Origin: Candidatus Taylorbacteria bacterium RIFCSPLOWO2_01_FULL_48_100
GTDB taxonomy: Bacteria; Patescibacteriota; Minisyncoccia; Phycocordibacterales; UBA10002
Reading direction: 5' to 3'
Assembly (NCBI GenBank): GCA_001821135.1
Contig: MHSA01000011.1
Span: 3,042 to 67,041, forward strand
DNA: 64,000 bases
Numbering within the stretch: the stretch's first letter is position 1; the number at the start of each line of letters is the position of its first letter. The translations under genes were made by a program, and so were the position numbers. Below the pieces are notes generated by a model. It saw nothing but the letters and a program-made list of their open reading frames with translations, made no database searches and had not been told where the DNA came from. Below are positions 4,218-56,650 of this stretch, in pieces.

Positions 4218-4285
4218 AACTTAGCGTAATCTTCCACCCGCCAACCCACCTTATTTTTATGTGCGTATAACTTATATAAAAACAC

Positions 4286-4325
4286 CACATCAATATAGTA
4301 CGCGACCGCGTACTATATTGATGTG
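4286..4325. repeat. Perfect 19-bp-arm palindrome CACATCAATATAGTACGCG-AC-CGCGTACTATATTGATGTG. Probably a terminator for the minus-strand gene 4386-4958, and related to the palindrome at 5006-5043.
   Basis: Read directly from the sequence. On the minus strand it is followed by GTGTTTTTA. Confidence 0.6.
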
Positions 4326-4385
4326 GGTAAATTGTTAGACAATCAATAATGAAATAACTAGAAGATTTACGAGAGAAGTTAGAAG

Positions 4386-4958: not shown

Positions 4959-5005
4959 ATTATTTGTTTTTCTTTTTGATAGATGTAGTGCAAGTTACAA
5001 GGGGT

Positions 5006-5043
5006 GTGTTTTTAAGTATATCAATATAGTGCGCGGTCGCAAG
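5006..5043. promoter_or_regulatory. Degenerate copy of the 4286-4325 palindrome (ATCAATATAGTGCGCGGTCGCAAGTTATATTGAT), about 50 bp upstream of the PaaX-like gene start. Candidate operator.
   Basis: It shares the ATCAATATA outer arms and the GCGCG-CGC centre with the downstream palindrome. Confidence 0.4.
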
Positions 5044-5270
5044 TTATATTGATATTGACTGATAGAATGAGGTTGTGGTAGGATTTTGGGCAGAGAGACA
5101 CAGAAGTTCCTCTTAGATTTCTGCGCCTCGCAGAGCGGGGGCGGGAAGCGTACGGCGTGTTGCCTGAAAGGGCGGCGCAACGGAGCGCTGAAAGGCGAAT
5201 GAACTTTGAAAACACAAGTTCCGTTTGCCCTGAAAGGGGCGAAAGAACAAAAACCTGAAAGGGTTATAGT

Positions 5271-6142: not shown

Positions 6143-8656
6143 ATGATCTCAACGATGGCTGAAAAACAGAACAAGCGGCTGGTGCTTATAGATGCGCACG
6201 CGATACTGCATCGCGCATATCATGCGTTGCCGGAGTTTAGTAATAGCAAAGGCGAACCGACGGGCGGGCTCTATGGGCTTGCGGCGATGCTTATTAAAAT
6301 TATTGCGGATTTAAAACCCGACTATCTTGCTGCAGCGTACGATTTGCCGAAGCCGACTTTTCGGCATACTGCGTACAAAGAGTACAAAGAAGGGCGGGCG
6401 AAGGCAGACGATGCGCTCATTTCACAAATGAAACGCTCGCGCGAGATTTTTGAAGCGTTTGGAATCCCGATTTACGACAAAGAAGGGTTTGAAGCGGATG
6501 ATATTCTCGGTACGATTGTAGAAAAGTTACAAGTTACACGCTACAAGTTACAAGTTGATATAGTTATCGCGTCTGGCGATATGGACACCCTACAATTAGT
6601 TGATGGAAAAAAAGTGCAAGTGTACACACTCAAAAAAGGGATTAATGACACGGTTTTGTATGACGAAGAAAAAGTAAGAGAACGCTATGGATTTGGTCCA
6701 AAACTTTTACCGGATTTTAAGGGGTTGAAAGGCGACCCGTCGGATAATATAAAAGGAATAAAAGGGATTGGCGATAAAACTGCGACCGAACTCATACAAA
6801 AATTCGGCTCGGTTGAGGAAATCTATAAGAAGTTGAAGAAAGATAGGGGTATATTTGAGAAAGAAGGAATAAGTGCGCGAATGATTGGACTATTGGATGC
6901 GGGAAAAGAAGATGCTGAGTTTTCTAAAATACTCGGAACTATTCGGCGCGATGCGCCGATTGAATTCGCACTTCCTGAAAAGCCGTGGCGTGAGTGTGCG
7001 AATGTGGGTAATGCAGAAAAGTTATTTCAAGAGTTGGAGTTTCGCAACCTTGGGCAGAGGTTGCGGGCGGCGATATCAAAAGTTTCTTCATCTCGCCCTT
7101 TTCAAGGGGGAGTACCCGAGCGAAGCGAGGGGGAGGGGGTGGTTTCTGCAGAAATTAAATCACCCCTCCGCCCAGCACTTTCTTCAGAAAGTGCTGGGCA
7201 CCTCCCCTTAATCAAGGGCAGGATGAAAGAAAAAGAATTTTCCGACCTCTCCATCGCCCTTTGGCTCATCAATTCCAACCTAACAAACCCGACCGCGGAC
7301 GATGTGTGTAATTTTGCAGGAACGAAAGATGTGAGCGTGGCGCGCGCGAAAATTCTTGCGGAACTGAAAACGCGCGGCCTCGCGCGCGTATTTGAAGAGA
7401 TTGAAAAACCACTCATTCCTGTTGTTGAAAAAATGAACGCCCGCGGCGTGAAAATGGATACAAAGTATCTTGCCGTGCTTTCTACAGAGTACCACCGCGA
7501 GCTTGCTGCGCTGAAAAAAGAAATCTGGAGTATGGCTGGAACCGAATTTAATGTAAATTCACCAAAACAGCTTGGCGAACTTTTGTTTGTAAAAATGGGG
7601 CTTAAGGCGGCGCGACAGAAGAAGACGGCAGGAGGCGCGCTTTCAACACGCGAAAGCGAGCTTGAAAAGATGCGCGATTTGCACCCAATTATTGCGAAGA
7701 TTCTTGAGTACCGCGAGTTTCAGAAACTACTCTCAACCTATATTGACGCGCTTCCAGAATCGGTAGATACGCACGGTCGCTTGCACGCGTCGTTTTTGCA
7801 GGCGGGAACGACGACGGGGCGAATGTCGTCGCAAAATCCGAACTTGCAAAATATCCCCATTCAGACCGCGCGCGGCAGGCGGATTCGGAACGCATTCGTC
7901 GCGGATAATGGCTGTGCGCTCCTCGCGTTTGATTACTCGCAAGTAGAACTTCGCGTTGCGGCAATTCTTTCTGGAGACCAGAAACTTATTGAAATCTTCA
8001 AGAAAGGGGAAGATGTACATACTGCGGTGGCGGCGGAAGTTTTTGGTGTCGCGCCAGAAAAAGTGACTAAAGAAATGCGCCGACAGGCGAAAGTAATTAA
8101 CTTCGGAATTTTGTACGGTATGGGAGTGAATGCGTTGCGCGCTACACTCGGAGATGTAGAAACTCCAGTATCGCGCGCGGACGCGCAGAAATACTTGGAC
8201 GAATATTTCGCGCGCTTTCCAGTGCTCGCCGCGTATTTGGAAGAAACAAAAGCCGTCGCGCGCGAGCGCAGCTACACAGAGACCTTATTCGGGCGGCGCA
8301 GATATTTTGAGGCGCTCAATTCGCCGATTTCGTACATCCGCGCGGCAGCAGAGCGGCAAGTGATTAACGCGCCGATACAAGGCACTGCCGCAGATATCGT
8401 GAAAATTGCGATGGCTCGGGTGGCTGAATTTTTGCGAGACGAGAAATTAGACGAAAAAGCACGCTTGATTTTACAAGTGCATGATGAATTGGTATATGAA
8501 GTGAAAAAAGAGTCGGTTTCCGAGCTCGCGCCAAAAATACAAAAGATAATGGAGGGCGTGTTGTCTCCAGGGCAGTCGCGGGGTGTGCCGATTCTGGTAG
8601 AAGTGAGCGTCGGCGACAATTGGGGGGAGATGCGGAAGTTAGTGGAAAGTAGTTAG
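6143..8656 (+). CDS. polA: DNA polymerase I (5'-3' exonuclease domain plus family-A polymerase domain; no obvious 3'-5' proofreading domain)
   Basis: N-terminal LVLIDAHAILHRAYHA (5' nuclease). C-terminal family-A motifs DYSQVELR, the O-helix RRQAKVINFGILYG, and QVHDELV. Start placed at ATG 6143 (alternative 6155), after the upstream terminator. Confidence 0.9.
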   Translation: MISTMAEKQNKRLVLIDAHAILHRAYHALPEFSNSKGEPTGGLYGLAAMLIKIIADLKPDYLAAAYDLPKPTFRHTAYKEYKEGRAKADDALISQMKRSREIFEAFGIPIYDKEGFEADDILGTIVEKLQVTRYKLQVDIVIASGDMDTLQLVDGKKVQVYTLKKGINDTVLYDEEKVRERYGFGPKLLPDFKGLKGDPSDNIKGIKGIGDKTATELIQKFGSVEEIYKKLKKDRGIFEKEGISARMIGLLDAGKEDAEFSKILGTIRRDAPIEFALPEKPWRECANVGNAEKLFQELEFRNLGQRLRAAISKVSSSRPFQGGVPERSEGEGVVSAEIKSPLRPALSSESAGHLPLIKGRMKEKEFSDLSIALWLINSNLTNPTADDVCNFAGTKDVSVARAKILAELKTRGLARVFEEIEKPLIPVVEKMNARGVKMDTKYLAVLSTEYHRELAALKKEIWSMAGTEFNVNSPKQLGELLFVKMGLKAARQKKTAGGALSTRESELEKMRDLHPIIAKILEYREFQKLLSTYIDALPESVDTHGRLHASFLQAGTTTGRMSSQNPNLQNIPIQTARGRRIRNAFVADNGCALLAFDYSQVELRVAAILSGDQKLIEIFKKGEDVHTAVAAEVFGVAPEKVTKEMRRQAKVINFGILYGMGVNALRATLGDVETPVSRADAQKYLDEYFARFPVLAAYLEETKAVARERSYTETLFGRRRYFEALNSPISYIRAAAERQVINAPIQGTAADIVKIAMARVAEFLRDEKLDEKARLILQVHDELVYEVKKESVSELAPKIQKIMEGVLSPGQSRGVPILVEVSVGDNWGEMRKLVESS
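7095..7224. repeat. G/C-rich modular palindromic repeat element, copy B, inserted in-frame in the polA inter-domain linker (encodes ~43 aa: RPFQGGVPERSEGEGVVSAEIKSPLRPALSSESAGHLPLIKGR)
   Basis: Module GGGGGAGTACCCGAGCGAAGCGAGGGGGAGGGGGTG is identical to copy D at 39550-39642. Module CAGCACTTTCTTCAGAAAGTGCTGGGCACCTCCCC is shared with copy E. The ending CCTTAATCAAGGGCAGGAT is shared with copies C and D. Confidence 0.75.
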
Positions 8657-10434: not shown

Positions 10435-11349
10435 ATGGCAGAGTTCAAAAAACCATCAAATGGTATGGAAGAAATTAAGTGGTTCATTGGATTCCTGATT
10501 TTCTTTGTCGTTGCGTGGTTTATTGGCGGCGGTATTTTGCGCGAAGTGACAAGCCCTTTCATAGAACCGCCAGTTCCGGTAACGGGAACTGCGGCAGGCA
10601 ATAAAACGGCTCCGTCAAAAACTGTTCCTCAAACTGGTTCATTTTCGGGCGACTTAAAAGCAATTGAACAAAAGAGCGGCGCGTCTTCCCTAAAAGGTTT
10701 GCTTGAATTGTCGGTCAATAATTACGGCTCCGCCGTATCGGCAAACGAAGAGTATGTGATGCTTCAGCTCTCCGACTCCGCGCCATCGCGCGTATTGCTT
10801 ACCGGAATGATTATAAAAAGTGAGGCATCTGGACGAAGCGCGACCATCGGGAAAGGCGCGTACTTACCACAACAAGGGACCATCAACGCAGAAGAACTCG
10901 TGTATCTTGAGCCGGGCGGAATTGCGTATGTCGTTACAGGCCGAGCACCCGTCGGCTATTCTCTGCGCGTGAACAAATGCACGGGCTACTTTGAGCAATT
11001 CCAAAACTTCGTGCCGCAACTCCCGATTGAATGTCCTCTTCCTAAAACAGAACCGCTCCCACCGCCGCCCAACAGCCCTTCGGATGCGTGCCTGCAATAC
11101 ATAGACAATATGCGTAGGTGCCGGATTGAGCCGAATTCGCCTGTTGAACTCGGCGAAGAGTGCCGCCGCTTTATCCGCGACTCATTCACCTATCCGCGGT
11201 GCGTTTCGGCGCACAAGAGCGATGCCGATTTTTACAAAAACGAGTGGCATCTCTACCTCTCGCGCGACCTTCCGCTCTGGAAGAGCACTCGCGAAGTGAT
11301 TACGCTTTTGGACGCAACCGGCAAGGTGGTGGATACGGTTACATACTGA
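10435..11349 (+). CDS. Hypothetical membrane-anchored secreted protein with a Cys-rich C-terminal region
   Basis: 304-aa ORF with an N-terminal TM helix. No known domain. Confidence 0.45.
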   Translation: MAEFKKPSNGMEEIKWFIGFLIFFVVAWFIGGGILREVTSPFIEPPVPVTGTAAGNKTAPSKTVPQTGSFSGDLKAIEQKSGASSLKGLLELSVNNYGSAVSANEEYVMLQLSDSAPSRVLLTGMIIKSEASGRSATIGKGAYLPQQGTINAEELVYLEPGGIAYVVTGRAPVGYSLRVNKCTGYFEQFQNFVPQLPIECPLPKTEPLPPPPNSPSDACLQYIDNMRRCRIEPNSPVELGEECRRFIRDSFTYPRCVSAHKSDADFYKNEWHLYLSRDLPLWKSTREVITLLDATGKVVDTVTY

Positions 11350-11380: not shown

Positions 11381-11390
11381 CCGACCCTAA

Positions 11391-11448
11391 AACCACCCCT
11401 CCGCCTCGCGGACTCGGCACCTCCCCTTATGTTAAGGGCAGGATGGAA
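11391..11448. repeat. G/C-rich palindromic repeat element, copy C (intergenic)
   Basis: CACCCCTCCGCC and CCTTATGTTAAGGGCAGGATGG modules are shared with copies B and D. Confidence 0.6.
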
Positions 11449-11497
11449 GAGAATATGGCTCAAGACAAGGGTTTTCTGACAATCGCGCCAATAACTA

Positions 11498-16888: not shown

Positions 16889-17674
16889 ATGGCTATGAAT
16901 AAAGTAGTCGTCGGTCAATCGGTTACGGCTGGCCAAATGAAGGACTTCTGGCGTCAGGTTGACGATGGAAGTATTGGTGGAGATTATTTTCAAGATTTTC
17001 TCGCACACAAACTGGAAAGGAAAGATGGGAACACGGTATCAGAAGTGACAACACCAAAAATCGTCATCCCAAACCTCCTCTCCACCCCTCCCACCCTCGC
17101 CGACTGGCTCAAAGCCCGAGAGGAACTGCACAAGTTCCTTACAGGTGAGCAGGTGATTCTGCGCGATATCTTCGCCCTCACGGACGAAGAACTCGCCAGC
17201 ACCACGCTGATGCCCGCCTTTCGTCCTGCAGGTGCCACCAACCGTAATGCGATTTATTGGAAAATCAAAATTGGGGAGAACAAACCCTATGAAGAAATAG
17301 ATGTAATGAAGTACACAAACAGTCAAGGTCCAAAACAACCCGAGCTGTACATCATCAACCGCTCCGTTACACCAGATGACGACACGGTCGGCGACAAAGC
17401 CAAGAGTCCCAACCAACTCATCGCTCACAACAAGCTATGGCTCGGACTCTTCTGCTGGTGCGATGCAGATACTCTGCATCATGTCATTACCGGAGAGACC
17501 CTTGACCAAAAAACTTGGACATGGTTCCCAAACGACCGTCTCCGCTACGCCAAGGTTGCGCTCGGCTACTGGAACCCGCTCAACCGCCGGGTCTACCTCT
17601 ACTGGCGCTATGCCGTCTATTGCAATCCGAACAACGGCGCTCGCTCAGCAAAAAAAGTTCCCATTAAATCTTGA
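16889..17674 (+). CDS. DGR target (variable) protein; the C-terminal ~35 aa are encoded by the VR
   Basis: 261 aa. The C-terminus ...RYAKVALGYWNPLNRRVYLYWRYAVYCNPNNGARS aligns with the TR-encoded NGKVANGNWNPNNRQVYLNWNYADNCNPNNGARS. Confidence 0.8.
   Translation: MAMNKVVVGQSVTAGQMKDFWRQVDDGSIGGDYFQDFLAHKLERKDGNTVSEVTTPKIVIPNLLSTPPTLADWLKAREELHKFLTGEQVILRDIFALTDEELASTTLMPAFRPAGATNRNAIYWKIKIGENKPYEEIDVMKYTNSQGPKQPELYIINRSVTPDDDTVGDKAKSPNQLIAHNKLWLGLFCWCDADTLHHVITGETLDQKTWTWFPNDRLRYAKVALGYWNPLNRRVYLYWRYAVYCNPNNGARSAKKVPIKS
17542..17648 (+). repeat. DGR variable repeat (VR)
   Basis: About 84% identical to the TR at 17938-18044. It differs from the TR only where the TR has A (apart from one edge position). 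It ends in the shared GC-rich CGGCGCTCGCTCAG (IMH-like). Confidence 0.85.
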
Positions 17675-17937
17675 ACCTTTCCCCCTTAAATCTTACTCGC
17701 TTCTTCGGTGGGTAGGTCATCGCCACTGTGGATACCCATGGTGGCGATTTTGTTACACTAACAACGGCTGTGAAATTGGTCCAGCACTTACCGTAAGTGC
17801 TGGATAACAATTTGCCAAAAAAGAAATTGCTTGCTGCATTTTTATACAATGCTCGCTCTACCCCGAGATAACACAGAAAACTGTGTAAACGATTTTCGGT
17901 GATACGGATGAAGACGCGGCACAATGAGGCACCGTCT

Positions 17938-18044
17938 CCACAACGGCAAGGTTGCGAACGGCAACTGGAACCCGAACAACCGCCAGGTCTACCTCAACTG
18001 GAACTATGCCGACAATTGCAATCCGAACAACGGCGCTCGCTCAG
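17938..18044 (+). repeat. DGR template repeat (TR)
   Basis: Non-coding copy of the VR with many AAC codons. All informative mismatches are TR-A to VR-N. Confidence 0.85.
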
Positions 18045-18066
18045 AAATTTCTCGTACCAAGGAGCC

Positions 18067-18386
18067 GTTACGGCTCCTTGGTCGTTTCGTAAGTTATCCA
18101 ACCGTTTAACATCTTTGCGATTTCAACGAGTTGCGATGACAAGCGGAGATATATTTTTTCCGTGAAAATACCAAGTTCATATTCTGTTCGAATGAGGTGA
18201 ATTACTCGGTGAACTTGAATGCGCGCCCCCTTTAAGAATAGGAATCTTTTCTTTTCTTGAAGTCAAAGATGCCGCAATCGTTGTGGCGAGTAATTCTAGA
18301 GTATATTTCTCAACCGTCGCATGAATTCCTAATTTGTCTCCCTTCGGCAATTTCTTCCCAATCTCGTAAATCTCTTTATGCAACAA
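18067..18386 (-). pseudogene. avd: DGR accessory variability determinant (avd, four-helix bundle), interrupted by a frameshift at a C5/G5 homopolymer near 18226-18230
   Basis: The N-terminal 69-aa ORF (EIYEIGKKLPKGDKLGIHATVEKYTLELLATTIAAS) matches the Avd/23S-IVS family. The +1 frame continues as ...YELGIFTEKIYLRLSSQLVEIAKMLNGWI, which resembles the Avd C-terminal helix. Confidence 0.55.
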
Positions 18387-18393
18387 TCGAATC

Positions 18394-19281
18394 TTGAGAA
18401 TAACTGATGGTGTCTTGTCGGGGGGGCGTCATAGTAGTGATTTTTATGATGTAATCTCGCTCGAACATCTACTCTGTGCATGGCGGAAGTTCTCCAAGGG
18501 AAAGCGAACCGACAGTGAAGTTGCAAAGTTTGAATTATGTTTGGAAGAAAATCTTTTCTCTCTCCACGAACGATTGGCGCAAGGAGTATGGACAAACGAC
18601 CCCTACCGACGCCAACCAGTTGCTGACCTCAAACCTCGCGTCATTCATATTCCGAGCGTTCGCGACCGAGTTCTTTTTCAAGCCGTATATCAAGCATTGT
18701 ATCAGATATTTGATAAGACATTTATCCACGACTCGTACGCTTCCGGGAAATGCAAAGGAACGCATACAGGCGTGAACCGATTTGAGACATTTGCACAAAA
18801 AGTATCTGCAAATCATACCAAACCCGCTTTTGTCTTGAAATGCGATATCAAAAAGTTTTTTGCAAATATCTACCTGAATGAACTAGACCAATTCGTAAAA
18901 CACAAACTTAAGGTGCGGTACTATATTCGTTACTGCGATGATTTCGTGATTTTAGACAATTCACACAAACAACTTCTGTCGCACATTTCTGCACTCCGCG
19001 CATTTCTCAATGAAAAACTCTTGCTAGAACTGCATCCGAGCAAGGTAACCATACGAAAATTGCATCAGGGAACCGATTTTCTTGGTTATGTCTCTCTCCC
19101 ACACTATCGCGTATTGCGGACAAAGACAAAACAGAGGATGCTCGCGCGAGTGAGTGAGAAGAATGTTGCGTCATATCTCGGAATGTTATCTCATTGCTGT
19201 TCCCACAATTTAACGAAAAAAATTTTGGCGGGTTATACTAAGGCGGTACAACATCATGCAATTCATACAATCTATTATTGA
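18394..19281 (+). CDS. DGR reverse transcriptase
   Basis: RT motifs present: PRVIHIPSVRDRVLFQAV (motif 1/2), LKCDIKKFF, the YCDDFVIL (YxDD) motif, and LELHPSKVTIRKLHQGTDFLGY. The tracked ORF starts at a TTG. Confidence 0.8.
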   Translation: MRITDGVLSGGRHSSDFYDVISLEHLLCAWRKFSKGKRTDSEVAKFELCLEENLFSLHERLAQGVWTNDPYRRQPVADLKPRVIHIPSVRDRVLFQAVYQALYQIFDKTFIHDSYASGKCKGTHTGVNRFETFAQKVSANHTKPAFVLKCDIKKFFANIYLNELDQFVKHKLKVRYYIRYCDDFVILDNSHKQLLSHISALRAFLNEKLLLELHPSKVTIRKLHQGTDFLGYVSLPHYRVLRTKTKQRMLARVSEKNVASYLGMLSHCCSHNLTKKILAGYTKAVQHHAIHTIYY

Positions 19282-23533: not shown

Positions 23534-23578
23534 ACATACGAATATACGAACAATACGAATCTACGAATGGCTACGAAT
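23534..23578. repeat. Tandem TACGAAT element, copy 2 (CATACGAATATACGAACAATACGAATCTACGAATGGCTACGAAT); its 3' end forms the rluA-like start codon (ATGGCTACGAAT = MATN)
   Basis: Near-identical to the inverted copy at 29143-29188; related to 2727-2775. Confidence 0.6.
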
Positions 23579-29142: not shown

Positions 29143-29188
29143 TTTCGTAGCCATTCGTAGATTCGTATTGTTCGTATATTCGTATATG
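29143..29188. repeat. Tandem TACGAAT element, copy 3, in inverted orientation (reverse complement CATATACGAATATACGAACAATACGAATCTACGAATGGCTACGAAA), directly before the nusG start
   Basis: About 95% identical to copy 2 on the opposite strand. Confidence 0.6.
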
Positions 29189-30155: not shown

Positions 30156-30708
30156 CGCGTTCCAAATCAACCCACACATATCTTAATCCAGTTTTCGTGT
30201 CAGTTCTTTCTTCGCGGAATACTTCGTGCGTGAAGTCCTTGTTCCAGTCGTGGAAGAAAACATCACCCTCCGCATCGCTTTCAACGAGCGTGAGGTAGAG
30301 TTTGTCGGTGAGCGGGAGCGCTTGTTTATAAATCTCTCCGCCACCGATGATGAAGATTTCCTTTTTGTTTTCCTCCTGCCCTTTTCCAAAGGGGAGGTGT
30401 CTCCCATAGGGAGACGGAGGGGTGTCTTCTGTTTTCTGCGCAATTTGTATCGCTTCTTCAAGCGACCCCGCAACCACCACTCCTTCCTTCTTAAAATACG
30501 GATTGCGCGTTATAACGATATTTGTGCGGTTTGGAAGTGCTTTGCCGATAGAGTCAAATGTCTTTCTGCCCATAATAACCGTATGTCCAGTCGTGAGCAC
30601 CTTAAACCGCTTAAGGTCGTCCGAAATGCGCCAAAGGAGCGCGCCCGCCTTTCCAATCGCGCGATTGTTCCTCCCCACCGCGGCAATGATGCTGATGCAC
30701 GCTTCCAT
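30148..30708 (-). CDS. folA: Dihydrofolate reductase carrying a ~24-aa in-frame palindromic-repeat insertion
   Basis: ISIIAAVGRNNRAIGKAGALLW...DLKRFKVLTTGHTVIMGRKTF ... IGGGEIY are DHFR motifs. The insertion EDTPPSPYGRHLPFGKGQEENKKE is encoded by the palindromic element at 30379-30426. Confidence 0.85.
   Translation of the reverse strand: MEACISIIAAVGRNNRAIGKAGALLWRISDDLKRFKVLTTGHTVIMGRKTFDSIGKALPNRTNIVITRNPYFKKEGVVVAGSLEEAIQIAQKTEDTPPSPYGRHLPFGKGQEENKKEIFIIGGGEIYKQALPLTDKLYLTLVESDAEGDVFFHDWNKDFTHEVFREERTDTKTGLRYVWVDLERAI
30379..30426. repeat. G/C-rich palindromic repeat element, copy H (CCCTTTTCCAAAGGGG ... GTCTCCCATAGGGAGAC), in-frame inside folA
   Basis: Two inverted-repeat modules in the style of the CCCTTATCATAAGGGGG modules of copies B, C and D. 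Confidence 0.55.
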
Positions 30709-33310: not shown

Positions 33311-34498
33311 ATGAAAGACCTACAAATCAAAAAATTGATGGATGCCGAGAAAAAGCGGCAGAAAAGCGTGATTAACCTAATTGCCTCGGAAAATTATGTT
33401 TCCAAAGATGTGCTTGAGGCACTTGGAAGCGAGCTCACCAATAAATACGGCGAAGGGTATCCTGGTAAACGCTACTATCGCGGGTGCGCGGTTGTTGACG
33501 AGGTAGAGCGCGCAGCGCGGAAGCGCGCGCTTGATTTGTTTGGGCTTACCGAAAAAGAATGGGGAGTTAATGTGCAACCATTATCGGGTTCGCCCGCCAA
33601 CTTCGCAGTGTATGCTGCACTTGTTCCAATTGGTGGAAAGGTGATGGGTATGTCGCTTGACCACGGCGGACACCTCACTCACGGCCAGCCCGTTTCTATG
33701 ACTGGAAAGGTGTGGAAGCAAGTGCCGTACGGATTGGATAAGGAAACCGAAAGATTGGATTACGAACACATTAAAAAGATTGCGACAGAAAACAAGCCCG
33801 CTCTTATCGTTGCGGGTTTTACTGCATACGCGCACATCATTGATTTTAAGAAGTTTCGCGAAATCGCGGATTTATGCAACGCGATTTTAATGGTAGATAT
33901 GTCGCATTTTGCTGGGCTAGTTGCAGGTGGAGAGTATCCATCGCCGTTTGCATATGCGGACATTGTAACGACGACAACTCACAAAACTCTACGAGGACCG
34001 CGCTCGGCGCTCATTTTCTCAAAAGAAGACGAACGAAAGTTGCCTAGAAAAATTGATAAAGCAATTCTACCAGGATTGCAGGGCGGTCCGCACTTCAACC
34101 AAATTGCGGCGGTGGCGGTGGCGCTCAAAGAGGCGAGTACGCCTTCGTTTAAGAAATACGCGGCGCAAGTGGTAAAGAACGCGCGCGCGCTCGCGGATGA
34201 ATTGCAAAAGCTCGGACACAGGATTGTAGAAGGCGGAACGGAAACGCACCTCTTGCGCATTGACACTTGGCTCGGCGGCCGCGGAATCGGGGGGCGGGAA
34301 GCCGCCGACAAACTTGAGGCGGCGGGGATTATCGTGAGTGAAAGCACTCTTCCATTTGATACGCGCGGTCCGGTAGACCCATCGGGCATACGGCTCGGCA
34401 GTGCGGCAGAGACCACGCGTGGCAAAAAAGAGAAGGACTTTATAGCAATCGCGCGGAAAGTTGATAGAATACTCCGTAATGGTAACAGAGAGCATTAA
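33311..34498 (+). CDS. glyA: Serine hydroxymethyltransferase
   Basis: LIASENYVSKDVLEALGSELTNKYGEGYPGKRYY ... VTTTTHKTLRGPR (PLP lysine region). Confidence 0.95.
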   Translation: MKDLQIKKLMDAEKKRQKSVINLIASENYVSKDVLEALGSELTNKYGEGYPGKRYYRGCAVVDEVERAARKRALDLFGLTEKEWGVNVQPLSGSPANFAVYAALVPIGGKVMGMSLDHGGHLTHGQPVSMTGKVWKQVPYGLDKETERLDYEHIKKIATENKPALIVAGFTAYAHIIDFKKFREIADLCNAILMVDMSHFAGLVAGGEYPSPFAYADIVTTTTHKTLRGPRSALIFSKEDERKLPRKIDKAILPGLQGGPHFNQIAAVAVALKEASTPSFKKYAAQVVKNARALADELQKLGHRIVEGGTETHLLRIDTWLGGRGIGGREAADKLEAAGIIVSESTLPFDTRGPVDPSGIRLGSAAETTRGKKEKDFIAIARKVDRILRNGNREH

Positions 34499-36152
34499 AC
34501 AGGCGGTTGCGGAAGCACTCACAAAACTTGGGATTAAAAATCCCGATGTGTCGTTGGAACACCCAGAGGAATTGTCGCACGGCGATTATTCCACGAATGT
34601 TGCGCTTCGGTATGCGAAAGAACTTAAAAAAAGCCCGCAGACAATCGCAGAAGATATAATACGATATATCGTACTACAGAAGATTCCAGCACTTGCGCGC
34701 GCGGAAGCGGCGGCAGGTTTTGTGAACTTTTTTCTCGCCGGAGAATTCTTTGCGGAACGAATACAAGAGATTTTGGAAAAGAAAGATGGTTTTGGAAAGC
34801 AGGATGTTGGAAAGGGAAGGAAAGTGGTTGTAGAATTTTCGTCTCCGAACATTGCAAAGCCGTTTACGATTGGGCATTTGCGCTCAACAATTATCGGAGA
34901 CGCAGTTGCGAAAACGCTCTCTTTTCTAGGATATTCTGTTATCCGCGACAATCACCTCGGTGATTGGGGTACGCAATTCGGAAAAATGATTGTTGCGATT
35001 AAGAAGTGGGGAGATATTCAGAAAATTGCAGAAAACGCGGCTCCTGTTAGAGCGTTGGTGGATTTGTATGTCTGTTTTCACGCTGAAGCAAAAACGAACA
35101 TCGCGCTTGAAGATGAGGCGCGTGAGTGGTTTGTGAAATTGGAGAAAGGAGATGAAGAAGCGCGCGGTTTGTGGAAGCAGTGCGTAGCGTGGTCAATGAA
35201 GGAGTTTGAGTCGCTGTACAAACGGCTTGGCGTTTCTTTTGATACGATGCATGGAGAGAGTTTTTTTGAAGATAAAATGCGCGCTGTGGTGGAGGATCTT
35301 GAACGGAAAAATCTCTTAAAAGAAAGCGAAGGCGCGCGGCTTGTATTTTTTCCTAGCGATTCCTTGCCGCCGCTTATGATAATAAAAAAAGACGGCGGGA
35401 CATTGTACGCGACTCGCGACCTGGCGACTGATGCATGGAGGAAAAGAGAGTATGGCGACGGGGTAATTATCGTCAATGAGACGGGCGGAGAGCAATCGCT
35501 GTATTTCAAGCAGGTTTTTATGCTGGAAGAAATGCTCGGCTGGTTTGCGCGCGGCGAGCGGGTGCACATCGGGCACGGGCTCACGCGTGGGAAAGAAGGG
35601 AAGATGAGCACGCGGGAGGGCAACACGATTTGGCTTGAAGATGTGCTTGACGAGGCAGTGAAGCGCGCGGAAGCAATAAATAAAGAGACGGCAGAAATAG
35701 TTGGAATCGGCGCGCTTAAGTTTAACGACTTGAAGCGGGAGGCGAAACAAGACACCATTTTTGATTGGAATGATGTGCTGAATATGAAAGGCGACTCTGG
35801 ACCGTACTTGCAGTATTCTTATGCGCGGGCAATGTCGGTAATCAGAAAATCCCCTCCTCAGTTGAGGAGGGGTGCCGAGTTCGCGAGGCGGGGTGGTGGT
35901 GTTACTACATTAGAACGCCTCCTTTACCGATTTCCTGAAGTCGTACTGCGCGCGGGCAAGGACTACGCGCCGCATTTTATTGCGACTTATCTTATTGAAT
36001 TAGCGGGCGCGTTTAACAATTGGTATGCGAAGGAGCGCATTCTTAATGCTGGGGAGGAAACGGAATACCGCCTCGCGCTCACCGCCGCATTCGCGCAGGT
36101 TATGAAAAATGGACTTTGGCTACTTGGCATCGCCGCGCCGGAGAAGATGTAA
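34479..36152 (+). CDS. argS: Arginine--tRNA ligase carrying a ~19-aa in-frame palindromic-repeat insertion near residue 455
   Basis: SSPNIAKPFTIGHLRSTIIGDA (HIGH-like), GDWGTQFGKMI, and a C-terminal DALR domain. The insertion SPPQLRRGAEFARRGGGVT is encoded by repeat copy G. Confidence 0.9.
   Translation: MVTESIKQAVAEALTKLGIKNPDVSLEHPEELSHGDYSTNVALRYAKELKKSPQTIAEDIIRYIVLQKIPALARAEAAAGFVNFFLAGEFFAERIQEILEKKDGFGKQDVGKGRKVVVEFSSPNIAKPFTIGHLRSTIIGDAVAKTLSFLGYSVIRDNHLGDWGTQFGKMIVAIKKWGDIQKIAENAAPVRALVDLYVCFHAEAKTNIALEDEAREWFVKLEKGDEEARGLWKQCVAWSMKEFESLYKRLGVSFDTMHGESFFEDKMRAVVEDLERKNLLKESEGARLVFFPSDSLPPLMIIKKDGGTLYATRDLATDAWRKREYGDGVIIVNETGGEQSLYFKQVFMLEEMLGWFARGERVHIGHGLTRGKEGKMSTREGNTIWLEDVLDEAVKRAEAINKETAEIVGIGALKFNDLKREAKQDTIFDWNDVLNMKGDSGPYLQYSYARAMSVIRKSPPQLRRGAEFARRGGGVTTLERLLYRFPEVVLRAGKDYAPHFIATYLIELAGAFNNWYAKERILNAGEETEYRLALTAAFAQVMKNGLWLLGIAAPEKM
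35846..35903. repeat. G/C-rich palindromic repeat element, copy G (AAATCCCCTCCTCAGTTGAGGAGGGGTGCCGAGTTCGCGAGGCGGGGTGGTGGTGTT), in-frame inside argS
   Basis: Shares the AAATCCCCTCCTCA(A/G)(C/T)TGAGGAGG module with copies E and F. Confidence 0.65.
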
Positions 36153-36159
36153 AATATAT

Positions 36160-39100
36160 ATGAACACAGACAATCAACAACAAAAAAAGACGATTGCCGA
36201 GAAAGAGAAAGAAATCTTGAAGTTTTGGAAAGAAAACAGGGTTTTTGAAAAAACATTGGAGAAAAAAGCTCCAAAAGGCGATTTCGTTTTTTACGACGGG
36301 CCGCCGTTTGCGACGGGGCTCCCGCACCACGGCTCGCTCCTCTCGTCTGTCATTAAAGATGTAGTACCGCGCTACAAGACAATGCGCGGGTTCCGCGTCG
36401 AGAGGCGGTGGGGGTGGGACTGCCACGGGCTTCCGATTGAGAGCTTGGTAGAAAAACGGCTTGGACTTAAAACGAAAAAAGACATTGAAAAAATCGGCGT
36501 TGCGGCGTTCAACGAAGCGGCGCGCGAGAGCGTGCTTGAATTTGAGAAAGAGTGGGAGAAATATATTGAACGGGTTGGGCGGTTTGTTGATTTCAAGAAC
36601 TCCTACAAGACGATGGACAACTCTTATATGGAGAGCGTGTGGGGCGCGCTGAAAAAGCTTCACGAAAAGAAATTGCTATACGAAGGAAAGAAAGTGCTTA
36701 TGTATTGCCCGCACTGTGAGACCCCGCTCGCAAAAGCGGAAATCGCGATGGATAATACCTATAAGAAAATTACTGAGGAGGCAGTTACTGTGAAGTTTAA
36801 GGTCAAAAATGAACCAAATACACATCTTTTGGCGTGGACGACGACGCCGTGGACATTGCCGGGGAATGTCGCTCTTGCTGTCGGTAAAAAGATTGTCTAT
36901 GTAAAAGCAAAAGTTGGTAGCGAGATTTTTATTATTGCAAAAGACCGTTTGGAAATATTGGATGGAAAACAATATGAAATTATTGAAGAGGTTGTCGGTA
37001 AAGATTTGGTGGGCTTGGAATACGAACCAGTTTACGGAGTACCTAAAATACTTAAACAATTTAAAATAAATGCAATTGAGCCGCATCGTATTCTTGAGGC
37101 AGGGTTTGTAAATACCAATGAGGGTACAGGAATTGTACACATTGCGCCAGCATACGGAGAAGAAGATTATCAGTTAGCGGGTCGCAATGATTTACCAATA
37201 GTGCAACTACTTGATGCTGGCGCGAAGTACAACGATAGCGCGCCTGAATTTTTGCGCTGTAAGTATGTAAAGAGCGCGGAAAAAGAAATAAAAGAGGATT
37301 TGGAAAAGCGCGCGTTTTTGTTTGCGCGCGCGATGAATACGCACGAGTACCCGCACTGTTACCGATGCGGCACCCCACTGATTTACAATGCGGTCCCGTC
37401 ATGGTTTATCGCTATACAAGATGCGAAAAAGAAGATGCTTTCGGAGAACGAAAAGATACAATGGGTGCCTGAGCACCTGAAGCATGGGCGCTTCAAGAAC
37501 ATCGTTGAAGGCGCGCCCGATTGGAACATTTCGCGAAGCCGCTTTTGGGCAACGCCATTGCCGATTTGGAAAGAAAAAGGTGGCGAGCGCGTAATGGTTG
37601 TTGGCTCGCTTGAAGAACTAAAAAAGCGCGTGAAAAAGTCGGGCAATCAATATTTTGTAATGCGGCATGGCGAGGCGGTAGATAATGCTGAACATAAAGA
37701 AGACATTTATGGCGACCCGCAGAATCATCTAACTGATAAAGGAAAGAAAGGTGCTGTGCATACAGCCGCTAATCTTAAAAAGGAGCGTATTGACCTCATT
37801 ATCACCTCGCCATTTGTGCGCACGCGCGAAACCGCTCTGCTTATCCAAAAAGAGCTCGGATTGTCGGACGATACGGTGGTAGTTGATGAACGCTTACACG
37901 AGCGCAACGAGCCGACCTTAGTAGAAGTGCGTCGGCGCGTGGGCGAATTCTTGTTTGAAATAGAGCGCCGCGAGCAAAACAAAAACATACTTATTGTCGG
38001 ACACGGCAGTCCGCTTTGGGTTTTGTCCCAAGTTGCGGAAGGCAAACCGTCGGACGATTTTCAAGACAGAGTGATGTTGGAACTTGCCAAAGCGCGCGCG
38101 CTTCCGTTTATTCCGTTTCCACATAACAAGGACTATGAGATTGATTTACACCGTCCGTGGATTGATGCACTGACGCTTGTTGATGAAGGTGGGAGAGAAT
38201 ACGAGCGCATTCCGGAAGTGGTTGATTGTTGGGTGGAATCGGCAGCGATGCCGTTTGCGTCCGGCACTGCGAAATACCCTGCGGACTTTATTGCAGAGTA
38301 TATTGCGCAAACGCGCACTTGGTTTTACTACCTCCACGCGCTCGGCATTTTGCTTGTGGGCAAGCGAGCGTTTAACGCAGTCGTGTCTACAGGAACGCTT
38401 CTCGCAGAAGATGGCGCAAAGATTTCTAAATCAAAAGGCAACTACACCGACCCGTTTCTTCTTATGGACAAGTATGGCGCAGATGCGTACCGCTTTTACC
38501 TTATGGGAAGCGTGGTGATGCAAGGCGAGGACCTTTCTTTTCGCGATAGCGATGTGCGCGAAGCGCACAATCGCGTTGTCGGAATACTCCGCAACTGCCT
38601 CGCTTTTTTTGAGTTGTATAAAAATAAATATGACGGAAATACGAAGGCGGAAGAAAGCGCGCACATTTTGGATAAATGGATTCGCGCGCACCTTAGGCGG
38701 AGTACGGCAGTAATTACGGATGCGATGGAGGCGTACGACACGCCTTCCGCATGCCGCGAGATTCGTGCGTTCACAGAAGATTATTCTACATGGTACATTC
38801 GCCGCTCGCGCGAACGGGTGAAGTCCGCCTCTTCTGCGGACGAGGCAGGTAGCGCTGACGCGCAACACTGCCTCGCAACCCAACGCGAAGTTCTTCTCGC
38901 GCTCTCAAAACTCATTGCGCCGATAATGCCGTTCTTGGCGGAGGAGATATATAAATCGGTTGACGGAGAAAAAGAGAGCGTGCATCTAGACGGATGGCCG
39001 GAAGTCGGAAGTCGAAAGTCGGAAGAAAAATTGTTTGAAGAAATGGAAAAAGTGAGGAAGATTGTGTCGCTCGCGCTGGAAGCGCGTGCGAAGGCGAATA

Positions 39101-39522
39101 TCAAAATACGGCAACCACTCGCTTTGCTCAAAATCCGAAATCCGAAATCCGAAATCCGAAATAAACCAGAATTACTTAATTTAATAAACGAAGAAATAAA
39201 TGTTAAGAAAATAATTTTTGATGAAGAAGTTGCAGGAGAAGTGGAATTAGATACAGCGATAACGCCAGAACTAAAAGAAGAAGGCGAGTTTCGCGGGCTT
39301 TTGCGCGCGGTACAGAATTTGCGCAAGAAAAAAGGTCTCACCATTTCCGATGTTGCAACGCTTCTTGTGGACACGAGCGCGGATGGCAAAAGGTTTGTTG
39401 AAAAGTTTTCAAGTGAACTCAAAAAATCCGCATTACTCAAAGATATTGAGTTTGTTTCGGTTGCGTATGGGGAAGCGGTTGCTGTTGGCGAACATACAGC
39501 CAAACTTGACATTCGGAAGTGA
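36160..39522 (+). CDS. ileS: Isoleucine--tRNA ligase with a ~165-aa histidine-phosphatase (PGM/SixA-like) domain inserted inside the catalytic core
   Basis: HIGH (PHHG), WNISRSRFWATPLPIW, DCWVESAAMPF and KMSKS (KISKSKG) are all present in order. Between PIW and DLHRPW lies YFVMRHGEAVDN ... ITSPFVRTRETALLI ... ILIVGHGSPLWVL, the RHG / SP.RA.ET / GHG motifs of the histidine phosphatase superfamily. Confidence 0.9.
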   Translation: MNTDNQQQKKTIAEKEKEILKFWKENRVFEKTLEKKAPKGDFVFYDGPPFATGLPHHGSLLSSVIKDVVPRYKTMRGFRVERRWGWDCHGLPIESLVEKRLGLKTKKDIEKIGVAAFNEAARESVLEFEKEWEKYIERVGRFVDFKNSYKTMDNSYMESVWGALKKLHEKKLLYEGKKVLMYCPHCETPLAKAEIAMDNTYKKITEEAVTVKFKVKNEPNTHLLAWTTTPWTLPGNVALAVGKKIVYVKAKVGSEIFIIAKDRLEILDGKQYEIIEEVVGKDLVGLEYEPVYGVPKILKQFKINAIEPHRILEAGFVNTNEGTGIVHIAPAYGEEDYQLAGRNDLPIVQLLDAGAKYNDSAPEFLRCKYVKSAEKEIKEDLEKRAFLFARAMNTHEYPHCYRCGTPLIYNAVPSWFIAIQDAKKKMLSENEKIQWVPEHLKHGRFKNIVEGAPDWNISRSRFWATPLPIWKEKGGERVMVVGSLEELKKRVKKSGNQYFVMRHGEAVDNAEHKEDIYGDPQNHLTDKGKKGAVHTAANLKKERIDLIITSPFVRTRETALLIQKELGLSDDTVVVDERLHERNEPTLVEVRRRVGEFLFEIERREQNKNILIVGHGSPLWVLSQVAEGKPSDDFQDRVMLELAKARALPFIPFPHNKDYEIDLHRPWIDALTLVDEGGREYERIPEVVDCWVESAAMPFASGTAKYPADFIAEYIAQTRTWFYYLHALGILLVGKRAFNAVVSTGTLLAEDGAKISKSKGNYTDPFLLMDKYGADAYRFYLMGSVVMQGEDLSFRDSDVREAHNRVVGILRNCLAFFELYKNKYDGNTKAEESAHILDKWIRAHLRRSTAVITDAMEAYDTPSACREIRAFTEDYSTWYIRRSRERVKSASSADEAGSADAQHCLATQREVLLALSKLIAPIMPFLAEEIYKSVDGEKESVHLDGWPEVGSRKSEEKLFEEMEKVRKIVSLALEARAKANIKIRQPLALLKIRNPKSEIRNKPELLNLINEEINVKKIIFDEEVAGEVELDTAITPELKEEGEFRGLLRAVQNLRKKKGLTISDVATLLVDTSADGKRFVEKFSSELKKSALLKDIEFVSVAYGEAVAVGEHTAKLDIRK

Positions 39523-39549
39523 TTCGTGATTTTTTGTATTCTTTCCTCT

Positions 39550-39642
39550 CGCCCTTATCATAAGGGGGAGTACCCGAGCGAAGCGAGGGGGAGGGGGTGT
39601 CAGAAAAAAAACACCCCTCCCTTTCCCTCCCCTTAGGTAAAG
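39550..39642. repeat. G/C-rich modular palindromic repeat element, copy D (intergenic, between ileS and recO)
   Basis: CCCTTATCATAAGGGGGAGTACCCGAGCGAAGCGAGGGGGAGGGGGTG ... ACACCCCTCCC ... CCCCTTAGGTAAAGGGCAGGGTAT. The GGGGGAGTACCCGAGCGAAGCGAGGGGGAGGGGGTG module is identical to copy B. Confidence 0.75.
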
Positions 39643-39661
39643 GGCAGGGTATAAAGAAAAT

Positions 39662-55198: not shown

Positions 55199-55346
55199 CA
55201 AATCTCCCACTCAGTTGAGGGGGAGTACTTGAGTCCGTCTAATGCGGACGAATAGGAAGGGTGGGTTCGGGAAAAACACCACCACCTCCCCCAGCACTTT
55301 CTAAAGAAAGTGCTGGGTACTCCTCCTCAATTAATGAGGAGATTTA
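55199..55346. repeat. G/C-rich modular palindromic repeat element, copy E (largest, ~148 bp)
   Basis: AAATCTCCCACTCAGTTGAGGGGGAG ... CAGCACTTTCTAAAGAAAGTGCTGGGTACTCCTCCTCAATTAATGAGGAGATTT. Shares modules with copies B, F and G. Confidence 0.7.
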
Positions 55347-55409
55347 AATATAACACAAAAGAAAAACCGCCGTTCGCAAAAGATGTATGGCGGTTTCTGT
55401 AACATCAGT

Positions 55410-55652
55410 TTATTTGTAGCATTTTTTTTCGTTTGATTTACAAACCTCCTCGTAACTTATCCAGAACACTAAAACAAAGAGTATTGCCGCAAACGCAGGT
55501 AGTGTCCACAGTGTTCCCTCAAAAGAGAGGAATAAAAGACAACCCAATAAAAGCAGCAAAAACATTTTCGGTTTCCTTATCACCGCAATTGCTATGCTAA
55601 AGGCATCTTTTATGTTTTTTCGATTATTCTTCATAGCGTCCACTTTCTTCAT
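55410..55652 (-). CDS. Hypothetical small membrane protein flanked by repeat copies E and F
   Basis: 80-aa ORF with one or two TM helices. Confidence 0.35.
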   Translation of the reverse strand: MKKVDAMKNNRKNIKDAFSIAIAVIRKPKMFLLLLLGCLLFLSFEGTLWTLPAFAAILFVLVFWISYEEVCKSNEKKCYK

Positions 55653-55721
55653 TACACAAAACTGTCCAGTAAAGAATATACACTACACCGTTTATCGCGT
55701 CAACATTTTGTATATGTTCCA

Positions 55722-55751
55722 AAATCCCCTCCTCAACTGAGGAGGAGATTA
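55722..55751. repeat. Palindromic repeat element, copy F (AAATCCCCTCCTCAACTGAGGAGGAGATT)
   Basis: Minimal module also present in copies E and G. Confidence 0.6.
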
Positions 55752-55813
55752 AAGAGAAGCACCTTGCCTTGCTCACCCTTCTGTTTCCCATCGCAAAAAA
55801 CGCTTGAAAGAAC

Positions 55814-56650
55814 AAATGTCTTTTATGTATAATACAAATGTCCTTTATAAATGTCCGTTAGATTTTATAAACGACATTCATATATGTATAAAAAGAGCAT
55901 AAAGGACATTAGAAGAAATACAAATGTCCTTTATAAAAAGACAGAATATCCCGATATGTCCTTTATAGGCGGAGAGTACTTGATTTTCCTTGTTAAAAAG
56001 GTAGAAAACTTTGTTCGCGCTATATACCTAATAACAAATTTTCTATCGGACAGTGAGCCGTTAAAATGGAGATTACGGACAATCTCAACTGAATTAATTG
56101 ATAAGTTAATGTCCTTTATAAAAAGTGAAGTAAATCAAGTGAATATTCGTTTGTACCGCGCGGACTTTTTAGGGTGTCTCTCCGGTATTGTATCTCTGTT
56201 GAATGTAGGAGAAGAGGGCGGCGTTATTTCTGAAGCGAATGTTGCGCTTCTAAAGAGGGAAATACAAAGCTTTTTCCCCATTTTTAATGAGAGAATCTTT
56301 GTGATGCGCAAGGACGATATTGAAAATCTTCCGCTTGCAAAAAATAAAGAGGCGTCTTTTCGGCACAAACCTGCGCGCGGAAGACCCCGTCTTATGCGGA
56401 GGTTGTCCGTTAGAAACACTGAAGATGTTTTAATAAGTCCTATACAGGATTCTGATAACATACAAAATGTCTTTTATAAACATAAAGGACAAGACAATGT
56501 AAGCGTTCGTAAAAGAAATAAAAGAACAAGAAACATAGAAGACATAAGGTCAAAACTGCGCATCACTCGCCAGAAATCAATTATGGATATTCTAAAGGAC
56601 AAAAAGAAGTTAACAATTCGTGAGTTAATGTCCTTTATAAAGGACTGCGG
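55814..56650. repeat. Iteron-like array: at least 8 copies of ATGTCCTTTATAAA (and its inverse ATAAAGGACAT) in the promoter region and within the coding sequence of the 55851-56774 gene
   Basis: Copies at approximately 55819, 55838, 55898 (inverted), 55924, 55957, 56109, 56468 with adjacent inverted copy 56481, 56593 (inverted, partial: TAAAGGACAAAAAG) and the perfect palindrome GTCCTTTATAAAGGAC at 56631. Confidence 0.7.

Follow-up and report, generated by a model that had tools for sequence, protein, structure and literature searches.

A probable orphan BoxC/PIT/TM-type repeat within argS of a Candidatus Taylorbacteria bacterium and its candidate link to DUF559 nuclease genes

The argS gene of Candidatus Taylorbacteria bacterium RIFCSPLOWO2_01_FULL_48_100, which encodes arginyl-tRNA synthetase (ArgRS), contains a 56-nt palindromic repeat module that is read in frame. 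The gene was analysed within a 64,000-nucleotide stretch of contig MHSA01000011.1 (positions 3,042 to 67,041), hereafter the window, to which all coordinates refer unless another sequence is named. Pfam divides the protein into Arg_tRNA_synt_N, tRNA-synt_1d (101–436) and DALR_1 (450–563) domains. Its sequence is 100% identical to the ArgRS of Candidatus Taylorbacteria bacterium RIFCSPHIGHO2_02_FULL_47_18 (P0001), a groundwater member of the Candidate Phyla Radiation (CPR, Patescibacteria). The true start of argS is probably the ATG at 34479, as relatives in the same protein cluster begin MVTESIK. The module (35847–35902) reads in frame as K-SPPQLRRGAEFARRGGGV, corresponding to ArgRS residues 463–481, and the slightly wider stretch 35846–35903 codes for SPPQLRRGAEFARRGGGVT. 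An initial annotation had described this stretch as a palindromic repeat inserted in frame in argS and followed by a GC-rich tail; the sequence, coordinates and peptide that it gave agree with those found here.

The module may be considered in terms of three parts. The first is a hairpin, H1, in which a C-rich and a G-rich arm form a perfect 10-bp stem across a short loop, CCCCTCCTCA-GT-TGAGGAGGGG, and which is predicted to be stable (RNA fold −28.2 kcal/mol, z = −2.7). The second, loop 2, is 17 nt long and forms a small hairpin of its own. The third is a G-rich strand. When its first 9 nt (GGGGTGGTG) are set antiparallel to the purine arm at 35864–35872 (GAGGAGGGG), the purine-motif triad rule (G.G, A.A or T.A) holds at 9 of 9 positions, here as G.G or T.A. 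The GC-rich tail exists and recurs, its segment 35865–35904 being 85% complementary over 40 nt to 11388–11427; it is not an appendage, however, but an integral part of the unit made up of the second hairpin and the G-rich strand. Likewise, a palindrome is present, but the repeat is more than a palindrome and is better described as a three-part, triplex-type unit.

A covariance model, R1, was built from 15 ends that flank DUF559 genes in unrelated metagenomes and is independent of both the window and the motif scan described below. It matches the argS module across its full length (model positions 1–53 of 53) with 50.5 bits and an E value of 2.6e-12, the top score in the window. The orthologous module of the relative L001 scores 54.9 bits. 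With R1, about 10 family copies are found in the 64-kb window, those outside argS scoring about 7.9–23 bits (Table 1). No partner module is detected by R1 inside argS, and the argS copy is classed as an orphan. The 26-nt palindromic core, AAATCCCCTCCTCAGTTGAGGAGGGG (35847–35872), occurs elsewhere in the window within three mismatches only at 55722–55751, while 0 of 100 shuffled windows contained any such match. The near identity that had been claimed with this copy, copy F, is therefore borne out, as is a relationship to both ends of copy E (55199–55345), with matches at 80% (D19) and 85% (I20). The copy F hairpin differs from that of argS by 2–3 mismatches and has no triplex tail, with a triad score of 6/9. 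Overall, the window holds 62 short-loop hairpins compared to 13–27 in shuffled sequence, an excess of about threefold.

Table 1. Position of the repeat module, its parts, its host gene and the other family copies in the window
Feature	Position	Strand	Evidence
argS (arginyl-tRNA synthetase), host gene	34461–36152	+	ORF (open reading frame) list; Pfam
Complete repeat module, 56 nt (hairpin, loop-2 hairpin, third strand)	35847–35902	+	Covariance model R1; sequence
C-rich arm CCCCTCCTCA of H1	35851–35860	+	Sequence; RNA/DNA folds
H1 loop, GT	35861–35862	+	Sequence
G-rich (purine) arm TGAGGAGGGG of H1	35863–35872	+	Sequence; folds
Loop 2, TGCCGAGTTCGCGAGGC, 17 nt, small variable hairpin	35873–35889	+	Alignment with L001
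G-rich third strand GGGGTGGTGGTG	35890–35901	+	Triad test; consensus tail GGGGTGGTG in oriented copies
tsaE copy, two overlapping modules (nested palindrome), codes KNPPSLPPLLKGGYRGDL in frame	3968–4024		R1 20.4 and 16.1 bits
polA copy, inverted module pair in frame	7088–7226		R1 7088–7148 (+) 19.2 bits; 7157–7226 (−) 14.5 bits
Intergenic copy, loop-2 hairpin and tail in common with argS copy	11387–11446	−	R1 20.0 bits
DHFR gene copy, weaker (gene on minus strand)	30371–30428	+	R1 11.2 bits, E 0.34
ileS–recO spacer, intergenic cluster of hairpin modules	39544–39660	+	R1 8.7 bits, weak; sequence
Composite intergenic element (copy E), modules at both ends	55200–55345		R1 55276–55345 (−) 22.9 bits; 55200–55270 (+) 7.9 bits
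Intergenic copy (copy F)	55677–55751	−	R1 17.5 bits

The place of the module in the protein was examined by alignment of 23 ArgRS orthologs, all of which carry a non-conserved linker of about 19–21 residues between YARAxSVxRK and LERLLYRFPE. A variable segment is thus present at the repeat site, but its length is unchanged. PYLQY and YRFPE are spaced 41 amino acids apart in the window protein, whereas homologs range from 37 to 65 with a mode of 40, which argues that the module replaced the linker with no net insertion. Judged from these sequences, the module is swapped for the ancestral linker nearly residue for residue, without lengthening the protein. From the earlier phrase "inserted in-frame in argS", the location inside the gene, the open frame and the membership in a dispersed family stand; the insertion in the sense of added length does not. 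In an AlphaFold2 model of ArgRS (overall predicted local distance difference test score, pLDDT = 88.9; predicted template modelling score, pTM = 0.90), the repeat-coded residues 464–483 are mostly coil between helices 447–463 and 483–488, and block 471–480 (pLDDT = 56) is the least confident part of the protein body. The module accordingly falls in a tolerant surface linker, disordered in structure, where the anticodon-binding domain begins.

A codon-level comparison with the syntenic argS loci of the relatives L001–L003 and L005 indicates turnover at this linker. The L001 gene (83% amino acid identity) has an identical module except for the centre of the middle hairpin, TTCGCG in the window and TCGACG in L001. 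In L002 (81%), the ArgRS linker contains three different hairpin modules and is 12 amino acids longer. In L003 (76%), an unrelated hairpin with a perfect 17-bp stem, GGAGCCTGACTCCTACA-TCTTC-TGTAGGAGTCAGGCTCC, is found at 10669–10707 and is unique in its 19-kb contig, and in L005 (71%) there is no notable palindrome at the linker. Within the 90% identity cluster of the window ArgRS, three linker alleles are present: the module type, the L002 type (+12 amino acids) and that of protein P0126 (+20 amino acids). The first 460 residues of P0126 are about 99% identical to the window ArgRS (P0001) and its C-terminal part resembles the L002 lineage, which suggests a recombination breakpoint at the linker, at the repeat site. 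From these comparisons, the ArgRS linker is a hot spot of strain-level turnover, with near-identical alleles that differ precisely there.

The DNA of the module has been kept more closely than the rest of the gene. The argS genes of the window and L001 are 81% identical in nucleotide sequence, with a synonymous change in 37% of the codons for conserved amino acids. The longest identical run between them, 39 nt, lies over the hairpin (35842–35880), a further 21 nt lie over the tail, and 18 of the 20 module codons are unchanged. A segment that is hypervariable as protein is thus the most conserved DNA of the gene, and constraint or homogenisation should therefore act at the level of the nucleic acid. 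On this comparison, the module has changed less at the nucleotide level than the synonymous sites around it, as would be expected from either constraint or recent homogenisation.

Repeats of the BoxC/PIT/triplex-motif kind have been known since the 1990s. The BoxC, potential intrastrand triplex (PIT) and TM_ECO elements of Escherichia coli and other bacteria were treated by Holder et al. (2015, PMC4666352), citing Maher's group. In that account, TM_ECO is always intergenic in K-12, has no association with mobile elements and is linked to local genomic instability; no function, mode of spread or associated gene was assigned to the class. The argS family resembles these elements in being dispersed and multi-copy, in its frequent inverted pairs, conserved stems and variable loops, and in local instability. 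A BoxC copy beside the E. coli gene ycjD also has the same layout as the units of the present family. The sequences differ, CCCTCNCCC/GGGNGAGGG/GGGNGAGGG in TM_ECO compared to CCCCTCCTCA/TGAGGAGGGG/GGGGTGGTG here, and the argS module does not fit the TM_ECO consensus CCCTCNCCC N3-6 GGGNGAGGG N3 GGGNGAGGG. R1 scores the E. coli BoxC copy at 3 bits and does not detect it, the stem sequences being different, so that it is architecture and the triad rule, and no homology in sequence, that tie the family to BoxC. Whereas TM_ECO is intergenic in K-12, the argS copy lies inside a coding sequence and is read in frame, as are those in tsaE, polA and the DHFR gene. With these differences in mind, the argS module is best assigned to the BoxC/PIT/TM class (class II, G/C-rich) and not to the TM_ECO family itself.

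The repeat is not confined to one lineage: copies occur in many phyla, and the class was already known. An exact-pattern scan for CCCCTCCTCANNTGAGGAGG over one genome per species returned at least 120 loci against about 9 expected by chance (uniform-composition estimate); the identity of the hairpins among these loci is imposed by the search pattern, whereas the layout downstream is not. Hosts among the matches listed are Hymenobacter/Solirubrum, Terriglobia and other Acidobacteriota, many CPR lineages, some Proteobacteria, Chloroflexia and Neomarinimicrobiota, together with metagenome-assembled genomes (MAGs) of Bathyarchaeia and Micrarchaeota. The common layout is the hairpin, then 3–5 nt or a small hairpin with covarying stems, then GGGGTGGTG, and copies often form inverted pairs about 100–130 bp apart. 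Equivalent hairpins with covarying stems occupy the loop-2 position in other phyla. In related copies, loops of 3–5 nt are commonest and hairpin loops of 14–24 nt are a regular variant. In an independent set of 237 hairpins, a perfect 9/9 third strand was found downstream of 92 and in the mirrored upstream control of 9. The tails also covary with the arms: AAGGAGGGG occurs with GGGGTGGTT, AAGAGGGGG with GGGGGAGTT, and AAGGGGAGG with GGAGGGGTT or GGTGGGGTT.

In low-GC contigs of the CPR, the reading frames of conserved genes run through many of the copies. Their in-frame hosts include TruB (in another Taylorbacterium), a MiaB-type radical-SAM enzyme, a tRNA-binding-domain (tRNA_bind) protein, a GT4 glycosyltransferase, a B12-radical-SAM protein and an HD/CCA-type protein. 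Two frames are in use, giving SPPQLRRG or PSSxEEG, while the third contains TGA, and genic copies occur in both orientations. A scan of viral contigs for the hairpin gave 0 matches, and so no sign of a phage vector. Published hosts of the BoxC/PIT/TM class are Proteobacteria and Cyanobacteria; judged by the copies found here, the class reaches far beyond these to CPR, Bacteroidota, Acidobacteriota and archaeal MAGs.

All long ORFs of the at least 120 loci were clustered to find recurrent neighbours. A gene of the DUF559 family (PF04480; Pfam E values from 9e-30 down to 5e-38), to which E. coli YcjD belongs, adjoined or was bracketed by modules in 9 of the approximately 120 motif-selected loci listed, the hosts being Hymenobacter, Acidobacteriota and three CPR lineages. 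No transposase-like family recurred in the neighbourhoods of the same loci. NtrC-type regulators, sensor kinases, ATP-binding cassette (ABC) ATPases and short-chain dehydrogenases/reductases (SDRs) were considered as partners and set aside, being common families that are not positioned relative to the modules. PADLOC gave marginal nuclease-domain matches only and no defence system. The DUF559 alignment has invariant E, D, H and D residues, and the profile matches PDB entries 3hrl ("endonuclease-like protein", 2e-32) and 3r3p (the mobile-intron homing endonuclease I-Bth0305I, 8e-4). Published classifications group DUF559 with Vsr and the EDxHD homing endonucleases, with which the neighbours here agree in fold family and in these conserved residues. 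Unlike those enzymes, the DUF559 genes are free-standing, about 117–125 codons long, outside introns and inteins, and bracketed by triplex-type repeats.

The association was also approached from the opposite side, with 80 DUF559 loci from metagenomes picked by protein similarity alone. A CCYCYCC-loop-GGRGRGG hairpin lies within about 220 nt of the gene in 51 of the 80 (24 on both sides), a 64% figure that may be inflated since these loci are the closest relatives of the module-flanked queries. Hairpin density is 2.34/kb beside the DUF559 gene against 0.08/kb at more than 400 nt on the same contigs, a 29-fold difference. The geometry is polarised. On the left, the canonical unit runs from the hairpin through 3 nt or a variable hairpin to GGGGTGGT and, after 10–40 nt, the DUF559 gene; on the right, the gene is followed after 10–30 nt by ACCACCCC, the loop and the hairpin. 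In 15 cases the closest module upstream has the order H1, tail, gene (median distance 46 nt), while the closest one downstream mirrors it in 24 cases (median 23.5 nt); modules facing the other way are fewer and farther out. By these positions, the modules are the mirror-image ends of small DUF559 genes in many phyla, and are far more often orphans. In DUF559 units, the tail lies 5–10 nt ahead of the ATG and could also serve for ribosome binding. A Shine-Dalgarno/anti-Shine-Dalgarno role of GGAGG/CCTCC was rejected as an explanation of the family, as it leaves the orphan copies in both orientations and the Bacteroidota copies unexplained.

The E. coli case was compared with this arrangement. 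In K-12, a GC-rich repeat, CCCCTCGCCCCTCTGGGGAGAGGGTTAGGGTGAGGGG, lies 168 nt downstream of ycjD (locus L206, NC_000913.3, 1351200–1351830), and this 45-mer is a BoxC/PIT/TM_ECO element. The interval between ycjD and BoxC holds a duplicate of about 45 nt of the ycjD 3' end, and upstream of ycjD a palindrome with a 16-bp stem ends in AGGTGAT right before the start codon. Every one of 5,426 complete E. coli genomes carries the BoxC element, with a median of 19 sites each, while a single copy of ycjD is found in 3,378 of them (62%). Motif numbers reported in PMC4666352 vary between strains, with 29 in strain 55989 and 1 in IHE3034. An association of the BoxC/PIT/TM class with a nuclease gene was not previously reported.

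Two further groups of repeats offer a comparison. Rickettsia palindromic elements (RPEs) occur in frame within various unrelated housekeeping genes, in a genome that is reduced and at sites where the protein can still fold (PMC10969869), much as copies here lie in argS, tsaE, polA and the DHFR gene and, in more CPR genomes, in TruB, MiaB and others. RPEs are, however, about 150 bp long, code for a conserved family-specific peptide, are restricted to Rickettsia and have an unrelated sequence (PMC10969869). In contrast, the present module is 56 nt, has a CPR host, two frames, both orientations and a triplex-type anatomy, and in argS replaces sequence rather than lengthening it. The second group is that of the repetitive extragenic palindromic (REP) sequences, palindromes of 20–40 bp with an unpaired GTAG or CGTC tag, for which intragenic copies are known (PMC3733652), and their REPIN doublets with the REP-associated tyrosine transposase (RAYT). 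The family here likewise consists of short palindromes in tens of copies and inverted doublets, with a small nuclease-type gene flanked in inverted orientation, and in E. coli a single-copy gene (ycjD) again goes with many repeats. It differs in having a three-part unit with a mirror-repeat third strand and no such tag, neither GTAG nor CGTC being present in 35846–35903. The flanked gene here is a PD-(D/E)xK/Vsr-like DUF559 gene, with a putative catalytic role, and not an HUH tyrosine transposase.

Taken together, the segment 35847–35902 is probably an orphan copy of a BoxC/PIT/TM-type element, in which the peptide is a passive passenger and the DNA is kept by break-and-repair copying, possibly started by a DUF559 nuclease. 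Mechanistically, the G-rich strand could lie on the purine arm of the hairpin as a purine-motif triple helix in single-stranded DNA. The argS copy is kept in one of the two stop-free frames. The element would have arrived, and would stay uniform, by break-induced copying from other copies, with the peptide carried along. A DUF559 nuclease acting on the folded module would be the best candidate for the break-maker by analogy with RAYT/REPIN and with homing, and mobilisation of the modules by DUF559 may be inferred on the same grounds. Structure-prone DNA would destabilise the site and so account for the turnover of alleles; instability could also arise with no dedicated enzyme, from the trouble that such structures are proposed to cause for replication in E. 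coli. A broader proposal is more tentative, and the odds are somewhat against it. In it, DUF559/YcjD nucleases and BoxC/PIT-type repeats would form an unrecognised cross-domain system akin to RAYT/REPIN but with a Vsr/EDxHD-type nuclease, in which breaks at folded (hairpin or triplex) modules and their repair spread the copies and hold them uniform. In compact CPR genomes, copies would persist chiefly where translation as a disordered linker is possible, and would time and again rewrite loops of essential enzymes such as ArgRS.

Several points weigh against the orphan-copy reading and its DUF559 step. At the locus itself, the argS copy has neither an adjacent DUF559 gene nor a mirror-image partner, and tblastn found no DUF559 in the 64-kb window or in L001–L005. 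Loop 2 is a hairpin of 17 nt, not the short second loop of the class (3 nt in TM_ECO, 1–6 nt in ITxF). The near-exact, length-for-length swap of the linker is unlike the prediction of a simple insertion, and at the DHFR and ileS–recO sites neither a target-site duplication nor an exact boundary can be defined, the flanks being too diverged. The recombinant P0126 comes from a read-level assembly, no contig was found for it, and it could be chimeric. That a peptide is made from the module is inferred from conservation of the frame. Among the wider evidence, besides the way in which the 80 DUF559 loci were picked, BoxC repeats persist in E. coli genomes without ycjD, and triplex formation by the E. 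coli motifs was not seen in vivo (PMC4666352).

The alternative that survives best, though it is improbable, is that of an ordinary REP/REPIN or a miniature inverted-repeat transposable element (MITE) moved by a conventional transposase (RAYT/IS200-type tyrosine or DDE), with the DUF559 association being incidental. The inverted pairs found in other genomes about 100–130 bp apart do resemble REPINs and MITEs, REPs are known within genes (PMC3733652), and the survival of BoxC in E. coli genomes that lack ycjD would be expected. Against this, the module has neither REP tag, it was DUF559 and no transposase-like family that recurred beside the listed loci, and an incidental association is difficult to square with the 29-fold local enrichment and the polarised geometry around DUF559; the E. 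coli study also found no mobile-element association (PMC4666352).

A somewhat weaker case can be made for a functional RNA element in the argS mRNA that acts in pausing, stability or regulation, with the structure kept while the sequence turns over. The stable predicted hairpin, the palindromes at the same spot in L001, L002 and L003, and nucleotide conservation beyond the synonymous expectation would all fit. However, copies of the module face either way and sit in unrelated genes as well as intergenic regions, in the window and in other phyla, and such mixed orientations of genic copies argue against a function in mRNA. L005 and most orthologs have no hairpin at the linker, and Rfam at gathering thresholds identified only tRNAs, and no family matching the module, in the window and eight loci. 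According to PMC4666352, RNA does not form purine-motif triplexes; conservation of the third-strand rule therefore indicates a structure of DNA. An RNA role is thus unlikely.

Still less probable is a local origin, by template switching or slippage in a relaxed linker, or selection for a Gly/Arg/Pro-rich peptide, with mere resemblance to the family. The linker is hypervariable and tolerant, and the private hairpin of L003, with no second copy in 19 kb, indicates that local palindromes can arise here. On the other hand, the argS module is a full-length, three-part match to a model from unrelated metagenomes, has its loop 2 and tail in common with the copy at 11388–11427, and shows no synonymous changes over 18 of 20 codons relative to L001. 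Elsewhere, identical modules are read by other genes in a different frame or orientation, which means that selection is not for any one peptide. An assembly or binning artefact, in which a repeat was collapsed into argS of a metagenome-assembled genome, is ruled out for practical purposes: while metagenomic contigs can be joined wrongly at repeats, and P0126 has a recombinant appearance near the linker, the same allele is found in several independent assemblies (four NCBI protein accessions with an identical linker, JGI/ENA contigs, one member being on 17 contigs of up to 180 kb, and read-derived sets), an orthologous copy exists in the independent genome L001 and the reading frame is intact.

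The other copies in the window add some detail on the family and its history. At the tsaE copy, TsaE has about 21 extra residues relative to its Pfam profile, and the triad score is 9/9. The polA pair sits between the 5'-3' exonuclease and polymerase domains (Pfam). At 7199–7232, its second module ends in AAGGGCAGG followed by an in-frame ATG (GRMKEKE), and the same hairpin end precedes genuine start codons at 11455 and 39662; conceivably, an internal start might yield the polymerase alone. In the DHFR gene, the copy is a true 21-amino-acid in-frame insertion, the ortholog in L003 being without it in a filled/empty alignment. The ileS–recO spacer is 139 nt and packed with modules here, compared to 5–8 nt in L001. 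From the spacer and the DHFR comparison, the family has therefore been active since the lineages of the window and L001 split, and the argS copy is older than that split. Between copies E and F (55346–55720) lies a small minus-strand ORF of about 75 codons that is membrane-like by eye.

Several further features of the window were observed. A diversity-generating retroelement spans 16889–19281, with an RVT_1 reverse transcriptase gene at 18394–19278 and two 117-nt copies, 17535–17651 (the 3' end of ORF 16889–17674) and 17931–18047, that are 87% identical, nearly all mismatches being at A of the second copy. Relatives L001 and L002 have bAvd and RVT_1 nearby. A tie between the retroelement and the repeat modules was considered and no link was found. 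In IleRS (36109–39522), a His_Phos_1 histidine-phosphatase domain begins at about residue 516, within the synthetase core; since His_Phos_1 is also listed for IleRS of L001–L003, this is a conserved domain insertion. A minus-strand ORF of 190 amino acids (4389–4958) with a Cas2-like/PaaX_M domain lies between 43-nt inverted repeats at 4289–4331 and 5011–5053 (region 4285–5053), the left of which is itself a palindrome with a 20-bp stem. A perfect 42-nt inverted repeat of ATACGAAT-like units (23536–23577 and 29144–29185) surrounds a 5.5-kb segment that could be invertible or mobile, and a related tandem copy of the ATACGAAT-type repeat is found at 2724–2768. Finally, a 21-nt AT-rich repeat (AATACAAATGTCCTTTATAAA and variants) occurs five times in 55809–56641, in part as inverted pairs, around and inside the start of an ORF with a weak DeoR-type helix-turn-helix match; its copies look like operators or iterons.

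Within the literature searched, nothing was found on RPE-like elements in CPR, on DUF559, on EDxHD, or on ycjD together with BoxC. The BoxC/PIT/TM class, in-frame palindromic repeats in Rickettsia and intragenic REPs are already known. What appears to be new in that literature is the hairpin-loop variant of the triplex motif across distant phyla and archaeal MAGs, the frequent reading of modules inside essential CPR genes, where they mark hot spots of loop replacement, and the modules as mirror-image ends of DUF559 nuclease genes. For CPR genomes, in-frame repeats are a source of mis-annotation and of spurious "insertions" in protein alignments. For the repeat class itself, an orphan for about 30 years, the link to DUF559 gives a candidate enzyme, and the origin of BoxC-type repeats becomes testable, either with E. 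coli YcjD and its approximately 19 BoxC copies or in cultivable Hymenobacter.

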